This document shows positions 122 through 3,534 of a DNA stretch of 3,569 nt, in pieces. The position numbers and the translations under genes were made by a program. The notes under the pieces were generated by a model that had not been told where the DNA came from, made no database searches, and saw nothing but the letters and a program-made list of their open reading frames with translations. Source of the stretch: Escherichia phage MS2; sequence record EF204939.1; one strand, 5' to 3'. Position 1 is the first letter of the stretch. Each line of letters starts with the position of its first letter.

Positions 122-129
122 TTTGACTC

Positions 130-1311
130 ATGCGAGCTTTTAGTGTCCTTGATAGGGAATCCGAGACCTTCGTCCCCTCCGTTCGCGTTTATGCTGACGG
201 GGAGGTCGAGGATAACTCATTTTCCTTAAAATACCGTTCGAACTGGACTCCTGGCCGATTTAACTCGACTGGGACCAGAACGAATCAGTGGCACTATCCG
301 TCCCCTTACTCTAGGGGAGCGCTTAGTGTCACTTCGGTCGATCAAGGTTCCTACAAGCGCTCTGGGTCATCGTGGGGTCGTCCGTACGAGGAGAAAGCTG
401 GTTTTGGCTTCTCGCTCGACGCACGTTCCTGCTACAGCCTCTTCCCTGTCAGTCAAAATATGACTTACATCGAAGTGCCGCAGAACGTTGCGAATCGGGC
501 GTCGACCGAAGTCCTGCAGAAGGTTACCCAGGGTAATTTTAACCTTGGCGTAGCTTTAGCAGAGGCCAGGTCGACAGCCTCACAACTCGCGACGCAAACC
601 ATTGCGCTCGTGAAGGCGTACACTGCCGCTCGTCGCGGTAATTGGCGCCAGGCGCTCCGCTATCTTGCCCTAAACGAAGATCGGAAATTCCGGTCAAAAC
701 ACGTGGCAGGTAGATGGTTGGAGTTGCAGTTCGGTTGGCTACCGCTTATGAGCGATATCCAAGGTGCATATGAGATGCTTACGAAGGTTCATCTTCAAGA
801 GTTTCTTCCTATGAGAGCCGTACGACAGGTGGGTACTAACGTTAAGTTAGATGGCCGCTTGTCGTATCCAGCTGCAAACTACCAGACTACGTGCAACATA
901 TCGCGACGAATCGTGATATGGTTTTACATAAACGATGCACGTTTGGCCTGGTTGTCGTCTCTAGGTATCTTGAACCCACTAGGTATAGTGTGGGAAAAGG
1001 TGCCTTTCTCATTCGTTGTCGACTGGCTCCTTCCTGTAGGAAACATGCTCGAGGGCCTTACAGCCCCCGTAGGATGCTCCTACATGTCTGGAACAGTTAC
1101 TGACGTAATAACGGGTGAGTCCATCATAAGCGTTGACGCTCCCTATGGGTGGACTGTGGAGAGACAGGGCACTGCTAAGGCCCAGATCTCGGCCATGCAT
1201 CGAGGGGTGCAATCCGTATGGCCAACAACTGGCGTATACGTGAAATCACCTTTCTCGATTGTCCATACCTTAGATGCGTTAGCATTAATCAGGCAACGGC
1301 TCTCAAGATAG
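130..1311 (+). CDS. mat: Maturation protein (A protein; pilus attachment/assembly protein), 393 aa
   Basis: ORF track 130..1311 (393 aa). The translation is near-identical to the MS2 A protein as I recall it (MRAFS...IRQRLSR). First gene of the levivirus layout, preceded by a strong SD. Starts with ATG here. Confidence 0.95.
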   Translation: MRAFSVLDRESETFVPSVRVYADGEVEDNSFSLKYRSNWTPGRFNSTGTRTNQWHYPSPYSRGALSVTSVDQGSYKRSGSSWGRPYEEKAGFGFSLDARSCYSLFPVSQNMTYIEVPQNVANRASTEVLQKVTQGNFNLGVALAEARSTASQLATQTIALVKAYTAARRGNWRQALRYLALNEDRKFRSKHVAGRWLELQFGWLPLMSDIQGAYEMLTKVHLQEFLPMRAVRQVGTNVKLDGRLSYPAANYQTTCNISRRIVIWFYINDARLAWLSSLGILNPLGIVWEKVPFSFVVDWLLPVGNMLEGLTAPVGCSYMSGTVTDVITGESIISVDAPYGWTVERQGTAKAQISAMHRGVQSVWPTTGVYVKSPFSIVHTLDALALIRQRLSR

Positions 1312-1334: not shown

Positions 1335-1727
1335 ATGGCTTCTAACTTTACTCAGTTTGTTCTCGTCGACAATGGCGGAACCGGCGACGTGACTGTCGCT
1401 CCAAGCAACTTCGCTAACGGGGTCGCTGAATGGATCAGCTCTAACTCACGCTCTCAGGCTTACAAAGTAACCTGTAGTGTTCGTCAGAGCTCTGCGCAGA
1501 ACCGCAAGTACACCATCAAAGTCGAAGTGCCAAAAGTGGCTACTCAGACCGTCGGTGGCGTACAGCTTCCTGTAGCCGCATGGCGTTCGTACTTAAATAT
1601 GGAATTAACTATTCCAATTTTCGCGACGAACGACGATTGCGCGCTTATTGTTAAGGCGATGCAAGGTCTCCTAAAAGATGGAAACCCAATCCCCTCAGCA
1701 ATCGCAGCCAACTCCGGAATCTATTAA
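1335..1727 (+). CDS. cp: Major coat (capsid) protein, 130 codons including initiator Met (129-aa mature protein)
   Basis: ORF track 1335..1727. Translation MASNFTQFVLVDNGGTGDV...ANSGIY is the MS2 coat protein sequence with a few substitutions. Operator-binding residues (T45, R49, K61, Y85, N87 in mature numbering) are present. Confidence 0.97.
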   Translation: MASNFTQFVLVDNGGTGDVTVAPSNFANGVAEWISSNSRSQAYKVTCSVRQSSAQNRKYTIKVEVPKVATQTVGGVQLPVAAWRSYLNMELTIPIFATNDDCALIVKAMQGLLKDGNPIPSAIAANSGIY

Positions 1728-1905
1728 TAGATTCCGGCCATTCCAACATGAGGATTACCCATGTCGAAGACAACAAAGAAGTTCAACTCTTTATGTATTG
1801 ATCTTCCTCGCGATCTTTCTCTCGAAATTTACCAATCAATTGCTTCTGTCGCTACTGGAAGCGGTGATCCGCACAGTAGAGACTTTACGGCAATTGCTTA
1901 CCTAA
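1678..1905 (+). CDS. L: Lysis protein L (75 aa), +1 frame, overlapping the coat 3' end and the replicase 5' end
   Basis: ORF track 1678..1905. Translation METQSPQQSQ...LLEAVIRTVETLRQLLT closely matches the MS2 L protein, including the hydrophobic C-terminal segment LYVLIFLAIFLSKFTNQLLLSLLEAV. Position matches the MS2 L gene. Confidence 0.9.
   Translation: METQSPQQSQPTPESINRFRPFQHEDYPCRRQQRSSTLYVLIFLAIFLSKFTNQLLLSLLEAVIRTVETLRQLLT
1725..1730 (+). terminator. Tandem in-frame translational stop codons UAA-UAG ending the coat gene
   Basis: Seen directly: taa 1725-1727 immediately followed in frame by tag 1728-1730. In MS2-like phages, ribosomes terminating here are thought to reinitiate at the upstream lysis start codon. 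Confidence 0.85.
1746..1764 (+). promoter_or_regulatory. Coat-protein-binding translational operator hairpin (TR) enclosing the replicase SD and start codon
   Basis: Seen directly: acatgaggattacccatgt. Stem acatg/catgt, bulged A, lower stem gg/cc, loop AUUA; contains SD gagga 1750-1754 and replicase ATG 1761-1763. Identical to the classic MS2 19-nt operator as I recall it. Confidence 0.93.
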
Positions 1906-3398
1906 GAGACGAGTTGCTCACAAAGCATCCGTCTTTAGGAAATGGTAATGACGAGGCGACCCGCCGGGCTTTAGCTATCGCTAAGCTCCGGGAGGCGAAT
2001 GAACGATGTGGCCAGATTAACAGAGAAGGTTTCTTACATGACAAATCCTTGTCGTGGGATCCGGATGTTTTACAAACCAGCATCCGTAGCCTTATTGGCA
2101 ACCTTCTCTCTGGCTATCGTTCGTCGTTGTTTGGGCAATGCACGTTTTCCAACGGTGCCTCTATGGGGCACAAGTTGCAGGATGCAGCGCCTTACAAGAA
2201 GTTCGCTGAACAAGCAACCGTTACCCCCCGCGCTCTGAGAGCGGCGTTACTGGTCAGAGACCAGTGTGCGCCGTGGATCAGACACGCGGTCCGCTATAAC
2301 GAATCATATAAATTTAGACTCGTTGTAGGGAACGGAGTGTTTACAGTTCCGAAGAATAATAAAATAGATCGGGCTGCCTGTAAGGAGCCCGATATGAATA
2401 TGTACCTTCAGAAAGGAGTTGGCGCTTTTATACGGCGTCGTCTCAGATCCGTTGGTATAGACCTGAATGATCAAACGATCAACCAGCGTCTGGCTCAACA
2501 AGGCAGCGTCGATGGCTCATTGGCGACGATAGACTTATCGTCGGCCTCTGACTCCATCTCTGACCGCCTGGTGTGGAGTTTCCTCCCACCTGAGCTATAT
2601 TCATATCTCGATCGTATCCGCTCCCACTATGGAATCATAGATGGAGAGACGATACGATGGGAACTATTTTCCACAATGGGAAATGGGTTCACTTTTGAAC
2701 TAGAGTCCATGATATTTTGGGCTATAGTAAAAGCAACCCAGATCCATTTTGGTAACGCCGGAACCATAGGCATCTACGGGGACGATATTATATGTCCCAG
2801 TGAGATTGCACCCCGTGTGCTAGAGGCGCTAGCCTACTACGGTTTCAAACCGAATCTTCGTAAAACGTTCGTGTCAGGGCTCTTTCGCGAGAGCTGTGGC
2901 GCGCACTTTTACCGTGGTGTCGATGTCAAACCGTTTTACATCAGGAAACCAGTCGACAATCTCTTCTCCCTTATGCTGATCATGAATCGGCTTAGGGGAT
3001 GGGGTGTTGTCGGAGGTATGTCAGATCCTCGCCTATATAAGGTTTGGGTACGACTGTCCTCCCTGGTTCCATCGATGTTCTTCGGTGGGACGGACCTTGC
3101 TGCTGACTACTACGTAGTCAGCCCCCCGACAGCGGTCTCAGTTTATACTAAGACCGCATATGGGAGGTTGCTCGCGGACGCCCGTACCTCGGGTTTCCGT
3201 CTTGCTCGTATCGCGAAAGAGCGTAAGCACTTTAGCGAGAAGCATGACAGTGGTCGCTACATAGCATGGTTCCATACTGGAGGTGAAATCACCGATAGTA
3301 TGAAGTCCGCCGGCGTGCGTGTTATGCGCACTTCGGAATGGCTAACGCCGGTTCCCACATTCCCGCAGGAGTGTGGGCCAGCGAGCTCTCCTCGGTAG
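1761..3398 (+). CDS. rep: RNA-directed RNA polymerase (replicase beta subunit), 545 aa
   Basis: ORF track 1761..3398. Translation begins MSKTTKKFNSLCIDLPRDLS as in MS2 replicase and contains the catalytic YGDD motif. Stop TAG at 3396-3398. Confidence 0.97.
   Translation: MSKTTKKFNSLCIDLPRDLSLEIYQSIASVATGSGDPHSRDFTAIAYLRDELLTKHPSLGNGNDEATRRALAIAKLREANERCGQINREGFLHDKSLSWDPDVLQTSIRSLIGNLLSGYRSSLFGQCTFSNGASMGHKLQDAAPYKKFAEQATVTPRALRAALLVRDQCAPWIRHAVRYNESYKFRLVVGNGVFTVPKNNKIDRAACKEPDMNMYLQKGVGAFIRRRLRSVGIDLNDQTINQRLAQQGSVDGSLATIDLSSASDSISDRLVWSFLPPELYSYLDRIRSHYGIIDGETIRWELFSTMGNGFTFELESMIFWAIVKATQIHFGNAGTIGIYGDDIICPSEIAPRVLEALAYYGFKPNLRKTFVSGLFRESCGAHFYRGVDVKPFYIRKPVDNLFSLMLIMNRLRGWGVVGGMSDPRLYKVWVRLSSLVPSMFFGGTDLAADYYVVSPPTAVSVYTKTAYGRLLADARTSGFRLARIAKERKHFSEKHDSGRYIAWFHTGGEITDSMKSAGVRVMRTSEWLTPVPTFPQECGPASSPR
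2778..2786 (+). other. RdRp catalytic GDD motif (motif C) within replicase
   Basis: Codons ggg gac gat at 2778-2786 encode G-D-D in the context FGNAGTIGIYGDDIICP; frame verified from ATG 1761. Confidence 0.9.
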
Positions 3399-3411
3399 CT
3401 GACCGAGGGAC

Positions 3412-3534
3412 CCCCGTAAACGGGGTGGGTGTGCTCGAAAGAGCACGGGTCCGCGTAAGCGGTGGCTCCACCGAAAGGTGGGCGGGCTTCGGCCCAGGGA
3501 CCTCCCCCTAAAGAGAGGACCCGGGATTCTCCCG
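3412..3534 (+). promoter_or_regulatory. Cluster of short tetraloop-capped hairpins in the 3' UTR
   Basis: Seen directly: 3412-3425 ccccg-taaa-cgggg; 3431-3446 gtgctc-gaaa-gagcac (GNRA); 3451-3462 ccgc-gtaa-gcgg (GNRA); 3468-3481 ccacc-gaaa-ggtgg (GNRA); 3484-3495 gggc-ttcg-gccc (UNCG); 3522-3534 cggga-ttc-tcccg. Confidence 0.75.

Follow-up and report, generated by a model that had tools for sequence, protein, structure and literature searches.

The N-terminal part of the lysis protein L in the genome analysed here differs from that of laboratory MS2 at seven of its first 23 residues, and it is very probably a passenger that hitch-hikes neutrally on silent sites of the coat gene and on compensation within RNA stems. 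The window is the whole of sequence record EF204939.1 (Escherichia phage MS2; 3,569 nt), and its coordinates are used throughout. In the proposed explanation, positions 1678-1760 encode L residues 1-28, yet their nucleotides would be selected for other jobs. One would be the coat C-terminus, with codon positions 1 and 2 frozen and position 3 free; the other would be a chain of RNA elements made up of the hairpin that occludes the L start, the coat-stop hairpin (TR-1), a long-range pairing with the coat gene and the replicase operator. Each tolerated coat-silent change would then necessarily replace an L residue, the L N-terminus would drift at the coat synonymous rate, and the replacements F5S, A14E and R19F would be the protein-level shadow of compensatory base-pair changes. 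Such drift would be tolerated because L can cause lysis without its soluble N-terminal domain, while the part that lysis requires (approximately residues 29-75), located in the replicase overlap, would be conserved and would suppress silent change in replicase. The substitutions, the geometry of the frames, the contrasts in rate, the covariation and the sharing of alleles among strains are direct observations on the sequences. The divergence is real but ordinary: it is the L variant of a known natural strain, and the gene, the allele, the dispensability of the N-terminus and the hairpins have already been described.

The list of open reading frames gives the window the four-gene layout of an MS2-like levivirus, with all genes on the plus strand: maturation (130-1311), coat (1335..1727; 130 aa), lysis protein L (1678..1905; 75 aa, beginning METQSPQQSQPTPESINRFRPFQ...) and replicase (1761..3398), the last of which also served as an internal control for the synonymous rate. 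The coat gene matches Pfam PF01819 (Levi_coat, 226.7 bits) and has the same coordinates as in annotated MS2, DL16 and other genomes; L is identified by Pfam PF11125 and by 100% identity to GenBank ABQ02457.1, the allele that strain J20 carries. As a complete genome, the window belongs to genogroup I of the MS2-like leviviruses and represents a natural strain. Compared with annotated phage records, its nucleotide identity is 94.7% to DL16 and 92.4% to the MS2 reference, for which NC_001417.2 was used in all comparisons, and none of these records matches it exactly. The L frame is +1 relative to coat and runs from the 3′ end of coat into the 5′ end of replicase at coordinates identical to those of MS2, so that length, position and frame are those of MS2 L (PF11125; type II or 'L-like'). 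A published strain table lists EF204939 as strain J20 from chicken litter, South Carolina, with 3569 nt and the same ORF coordinates (PMC3499819); the window is very probably this strain. The J20 source phage was isolated as a plaque-forming coliphage (PMC3499819), and functional lysis by the window phage follows from this only on condition that it really is J20. We infer that the window L allele is lytic.

An earlier note, made from the sequence without database searches, had proposed about seven differences from MS2 L. Codon-by-codon comparison with NC_001417, aligned in both frames, gives exactly seven in residues 1-23: R4Q, F5S, Q11P, A14E, T16I, R19F and K23Q (MS2 to window). The MS2 N-terminus that the note had given (METRFPQQSQQTPASTNRRRPFK) matches NC_001417 exactly, and the possibility it had raised against itself, an N-terminus identical to the reference, is answered by the same alignment. 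Eight nucleotide differences underlie the seven replacements. Three are intergenic (1732 C>U, 1733 G>U and 1744 A>C) and five (1688 G>A, 1691 U>C, 1709 A>C, 1718 C>A and 1724 C>U) lie in the coat/L overlap (1678..1727, plus strand), which comprises the last 16 coat codons and the stop. All five overlap changes are coat-synonymous third positions, and coat residues 114-130 are identical to MS2, bearing out both the statement that the coat residues KDGNPIPSAIAANSGIY are unchanged and the description of the changes as silent in coat and non-synonymous in L. The L/replicase overlap (1761..1905, plus strand) encodes L residues 29-75, with the hydrophobic domain, Leu48-Ser49 and the C-terminal tail. 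Conservation of the hydrophobic C-terminal part, also claimed in the note, holds for the identical block of residues 24-67, within which the hydrophobic segment and Leu48-Ser49 fall, but not for the extreme C-terminus, where T68E and Q71R bring the replacements relative to the laboratory reference to nine. Overall, L diverges from MS2 by 12%, with 7/23 in the N-terminus, compared with 2.3-3.9% for the other three proteins.

Much of this pattern is dictated by the frames themselves. The third base of each overlapping coat codon is the second base of an L codon, and the same holds for replicase. A second-position change always replaces a residue, so any coat third-position change in the overlap must alter L; 'silent in coat, replacing in L' therefore follows from the frame offset and carries no independent signal. 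Nor is it remarkable that all five overlap changes fall at coat third positions, since 21 of the 26 coat changes outside the overlap do likewise.

The rates of silent change in the two overlapped genes are more informative. A formal overlapping-gene dN/dS for L codons 1-16 was set aside because the coincidence of coat position 3 with L position 2 leaves practically no doubly synonymous sites, and the coat synonymous rate inside versus outside the overlap was used as a proxy. With a small sample of 16 overlap codons and 12-14 close, phylogenetically non-independent relatives, reduced coat silent change under L codons 1-16 was detected neither between window and MS2 nor among the strains, a failure to detect constraint and no proof of neutrality: coat third positions differ from MS2 at 5/16 sites under these codons and at 21/114 elsewhere (p=0.31), variable third positions among the 12-14 strains number 8/16 inside the L overlap and 50/114 outside (p=0.79), and coat dS (NG86) is 0.58 inside and 0.34 outside. 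Replicase behaves differently under L residues 29-75. There, only 2/47 third positions differ between window and MS2 compared with 105/497 outside (p=0.0034), and 2/47 silent sites vary among 14 strains compared with 261/455 outside (p=1.1e-13); dS (NG86) is 0.038 versus 0.403, an approximately 10-fold suppression, to which RNA structure at 1761-1902 (operator, TR+1) could contribute besides L. The protein itself shows the same contrast, with 11/28 residues variable among 12 strains in the N part and 4/47 in the C part (p=0.002), and with L dN of 0.149 for codons 1-16 and 0.029 for codons 29-75. Such a contrast is what one would expect of a protein with a dispensable front and an essential rear, and in these alignments the front end indeed appears to be a passenger and the rear end constrained. 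Unreduced coat dS at the front, suppressed replicase dS at the rear and the literature all agree with the earlier suggestion that the changes fit a dispensable L N-terminus.

The domain structure of L points the same way. The window protein scores 128.3 bits with PF11125 (Phage_MS2_lysis; cut-off 25, E=1.1e-37), and the match takes in the full 54-position profile but only L residues 22-75. From residue 37 to 67 it does not differ from MS2 L, Leu48-Ser49 included, and it shows the same hydropathy profile; L-like (type II) single-gene lysis proteins are characterized in the literature by a hydrophobic domain followed by a conserved Leu-Ser dipeptide. Lytic activity of L is limited to the C-terminal 35 aa, and the soluble N-terminal domain can be deleted without loss of lysis (PMC10688784). 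The more distant phage fr, with a genome identity of only ~78%, encodes a lysis protein of 71 aa that has the same genome position and shares the core PFQHE(D/E)YPC...QQRSSTLYVLI.LAIFLSKFTNQLL with the window L, whereas its annotated start lies four codons later, at a UUG, and its N-terminus is largely different. This shift shows that the N-terminus can vary freely, down to the codon at which it starts.

The other layer of selection on these nucleotides would be RNA structure, and three local hairpins are predicted in both window and MS2, with the architecture kept in 12/12 MS2-like strains. On the plus strand, the L-start ('lysis') hairpin (1647..1702) encloses the L AUG at 1678-1680 and is supported by predicted folds, covariation and literature. 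The coat-stop hairpin, or TR-1 packaging stem-loop (1714..1737, plus strand; L codons 13-20), is supported by predicted folds, covariation and cryo-EM literature; in the window it forms a perfect 10-bp stem with the loop UUAA, and the coat stops UAA UAG lie in the loop and the 3′ arm. The replicase operator (TR) region (1729..1764, plus strand) scores 60.6 bits with Rfam RF02359 (gathering score 40; E=4.8e-13), a match that takes in the replicase AUG and the sequence immediately 5′ of it. Within this region, the hairpin proper (1746-1764), which specifies the invariant L residues 24-29 (HEDYPC), has the same sequence as in MS2, all seven pairs being invariant in 15 sequences. Between TR-1 and the operator hairpin, the 3′ strand of a long-range pairing (1738..1744) can pair, by sequence comparison, with a 5′ strand inside the coat gene (1427..1433), both on the plus strand; we take this to be the Min Jou long-range interaction. 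Its 6-bp core CCAUUC:GAAUGG is invariant, and the terminal U1427:A1744 of MS2 is U.C in the window, a loss of pairing caused by the same change that gives K23Q in L. All these elements (lysis hairpin, TR-1, long-range pairing and RF02359) thus occupy the coordinates, and have the predicted architecture, of their MS2 counterparts. By analogy, the window hairpins probably have the regulatory and packaging roles described for MS2. The lysis hairpin has been described there, and a single stabilizing mutation in it, A1664G, is reported to lower L-start activity and alter phage behaviour (PMC7442481), while nucleotides 1720-1731 are among the coat-contacting stem-loops in MS2 cryo-EM, with TR-1 a loop flanking TR (PMC9023274, PMC12377776).

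Half of the eight nucleotide differences (4/8) fall in stems, at pairs 1658:1691, 1718:1733 and 1719:1732, and in every case pairing is kept or repaired. Relative to MS2, the lysis hairpin of the window has A-U replaced by G-C at 1658:1691. This pair is G-C in the window clade, and fr and the MS2 clade have A-U (distinct sequences: GC 7, AU 4, broken 0). F5S is thus one half of a compensatory pair whose partner is a silent coat change 33 nt upstream. In TR-1, pair 1718:1733 occurs in three types (C-G in MS2, A-U in the window clade, G-C in the GER isolate), the A.C mismatch of MS2 at 1719:1732 is repaired to A-U in the window through 1732 C>U, and the loop changes from CUAA to UUAA, so that A14E and R19F are coupled via the TR-1 stem. 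In silico, C1718A, G1733U or U1691C alone destabilizes its hairpin and the natural doubles restore or improve stability. A1658G alone keeps stability through a G.U pair, and 1658:1691 is weaker evidence for selection on pairing because such a neutral G.U intermediate is possible. The remaining local changes lie off the stems, at an internal loop (1688), a linker (1709) and the first TR-1 loop base (1724).

Covariation across strains supports these helices. In 15 sequences (11 distinct), 96.4% of cells are paired compared with 27-47% for slid partners; five pairs are changed on both sides, the observed covariation score was reached in 0/500 shuffles, and RNAalifold recovers the same helices as the single-sequence folds. 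The L-start hairpin has three pairs with compensatory double changes and 97% of its cells paired. Strain M12 has two further compensatory pairs in this hairpin, yielding L P6L and Q7R. About half of the L 'divergence' is thus a protein-level shadow of RNA-stem maintenance.

The L states of the window are widely shared. Among the seven N-terminal states, six are common to DL16, DL1, FrSaffron, FrHenna, FrBlood, Hu-Sh or GER, and the seventh, P11 (1709 A>C), occurs in none of the other MS2-like strains, although fr has the same nucleotide. As in the window, S5, E14 and E68 are found in the L proteins of DL16, DL1, FrSaffron, FrHenna, FrBlood, Hu-Sh-YMS and GER_L00928 (Emesvirus zinderi). F19 is also present in the natural strains DL16, DL1, the Fr strains and Hu-Sh, while GER has S19; Q23 is present in DL16, the Fr strains, Hu-Sh and GER, DL1 excepted. 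Q4 is common to the window, Hu-Sh and FrSaffron, I16 to the window, FrSaffron and GER, and R71 to the window and GER. From this distribution, the window L 'divergence' is clade-wide polymorphism, with nothing special to this genome. With fr as outgroup, the window has the fr state at 1688, 1709, 1718 and 1744, and MS2 has it at 1691, 1724 and 1732. This split suggests that the differences are divided between both lineages and that approximately half may have arisen on the MS2 laboratory lineage; laboratory MS2 may be derived at several sites, although polarity from an outgroup only 78% identical is suggestive only.

To enlarge the strain sample, contigs from IMG/VR and metagenomes were scanned for the operator pattern ACATGAGGANTACCCATG, which gave 61 loci, of which only two are MS2-like, both essentially MS2; the others, which were set aside, are one distant levivirus and, for the remainder, chance matches. 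The metagenome contig of this apparently more distant levivirus (OGVH01000845.1; 2323-2554 and 2726-2743) has an exact operator match and ~70% identity to coat region 1352-1583. A search of a 5.8-billion-protein collection with L returned only eight clusters, with no large reservoir of further natural alleles. The same collection contains proteins annotated as 'phage MS2 lysis protein family' that are labelled Listeria monocytogenes and come from contigs of 474 and 769 nt, and in it a 114-aa protein joins the microvirus E lysis domain (PF04517) to the MS2 L domain; these Listeria-labelled entries and the E-L fusion are probably contamination or synthetic E-L constructs. Searches by tblastn with L were uninformative for the N-terminus, residues 1-16 being masked as low complexity. 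DL52 and DL54, 'JS-like' recombinants that were included in the covariation set, are ~81% identical to the window over 1335-3299 and identical to DL16 over 1640-1770 (L-start, TR-1, operator), which fits the published recombinant origin of their replicase.

Other explanations of the same differences can be weighed against neutral hitch-hiking. Errors of sequencing or assembly, in the window genome or in the MS2 reference, have an almost negligible probability, and an artefact was rejected: every window variant but 1709C recurs in independent isolates, 1709C recurs in fr, and the reading frames are all intact. The MS2 reference does carry idiosyncratic replicase residues 81-83 (GDR versus (D/E)RC in all other strains), but over 1670-1770 it is identical to ST4 (EF204940; proteins ABQ02459-62), MS2_ancestral and two metagenomic MS2 contigs. 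Selection acting at the RNA level, with the stability of the L-start hairpin and TR-1 retuned for L translation and packaging and the protein change irrelevant, is rather unlikely but deserves more weight. Both hairpins are predicted to be ~2 kcal/mol more stable in the window than in MS2 (-16.2 versus -14.0 kcal/mol for the L-start hairpin and -14.2 versus -12.0 kcal/mol for the coat-stop hairpin), and both the reported effect of A1664G in the lysis hairpin (PMC7442481) and the contact of the hairpin apex 1720-1731 with coat protein in the virion (PMC9023274, PMC12377776) speak for this explanation. Predicted stability varies among strains without a clear optimum, however (-9.7 to -16.4 kcal/mol for the coat-stop hairpin), which is more like maintenance of pairing than directional tuning, and removal of TR and its flanking loops has little effect on packaging selectivity when other loops are present (PMC9023274, PMC12377776). 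This explanation overlaps with the preferred one and does not contradict it.

Adaptive tuning of the protein, in which charge loss in domain 1 was selected and altered the interaction with DnaJ, the timing of lysis or DnaJ-dependent detection by host defences, is improbable. Its attraction is that the changes run in one direction and strike a regulatory part of L. Residues 1-23 carry a net charge of 0 in the window, Hu-Sh and FrSaffron and of +4 in MS2 and ST4; four of the seven replacements lower the charge and none (0/7) raises it. Over residues 1-36, the window has a net charge of +1 with five K/R and MS2 has +5 with eight, the literature giving no threshold for 'highly cationic'; the basic residues remaining in window L are R18, R20, R30, R31 and R34. 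Domain 1 mediates the interaction of L with DnaJ (PMC10688784) and is the regulatory part of L; cationic domain 1 is also described, in work citing Berkhout 1985 and Chamakura 2017, as non-essential yet conferring DnaJ dependence. Activation of the defence bNACHT25 by L is itself DnaJ-dependent (PMC12169576). Against selection on charge, the N-terminus changes at the coat synonymous background rate without excess, RNA pairing or participation in the long-range helix accounts for three of the four charge-changing sites (1718, 1732/1733, 1744), and random replacements in a strongly basic starting sequence tend to lower its charge. Polarity is also uncertain, since fr has the window state at 1688, 1709, 1718 and 1744 and the high charge of MS2 may be derived, and the other strains form a continuum between 0 and +4. 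The uniformity of the charge loss is neither predicted nor excluded by pure drift. A related conjecture, that charge-neutral L alleles act in nature as partial 'DnaJ-bypass' variants, which would lyse faster or without the chaperone or would trigger immunity less, is also unlikely, if marginally less so; if true, L drift would carry a selectable phenotype. An effect of charge loss on lysis timing or immune triggering is conceivable, and nothing requires one.

Neutral hitch-hiking would make this region a worked example of overprinted-gene evolution, in which the dispensable end of the younger frame drifts at the synonymous rate of the older gene and records RNA-stem compensation as amino-acid replacements, while its essential end freezes silent sites in the gene that it overlaps. 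A high replacement rate in L 1-23 should accordingly not be taken as positive selection. Natural charge variants of L domain 1 are also possible probes of DnaJ dependence.

Several further features of the genome were recorded. The maturation start of the window (128-132) is AUG, as in 10/12 MS2-like strains, the usually quoted GUG being confined to the MS2 reference, ST4 and fr; the dinucleotide just 5′ of this start differs as well (UC versus CU). A weak Rfam match to the TLS-PK3 pseudoknot at 3306-3443, across the replicase 3′ end and the 3′ UTR (21.3 bits versus a gathering score of 80, E=0.18), is most likely due to chance. At 2001-2009, NC_001417 encodes Gly-Asp-Arg at replicase 81-83 where the window and all other strains, including ST4, R17 and fr, encode (Asp/Glu)-Arg-Cys. 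The reference reading looks like a frame slip followed by compensation, or like an error of early sequencing, and of the 21 replicase differences from 'MS2' three are therefore peculiarities of the reference. Three adjacent changes at 1878-1880 (GAC>AGA) produce replicase D40R together with L T68E; AGA is found in the whole DL16/Fr clade, and Hu-Sh has the intermediate GGA (Gly). Two codons 5′ of the L AUG, the L frame has a stop at 1672-1674, which is UAA or UGA among MS2-like strains (coat-silent A/G at 1673) and is never lost. The L start itself does vary: in a German isolate (LT898437), 1677-1678 GA>AG converts the L start from AUG to GUG and coat Asp114 to Ser, a natural non-AUG start of L.
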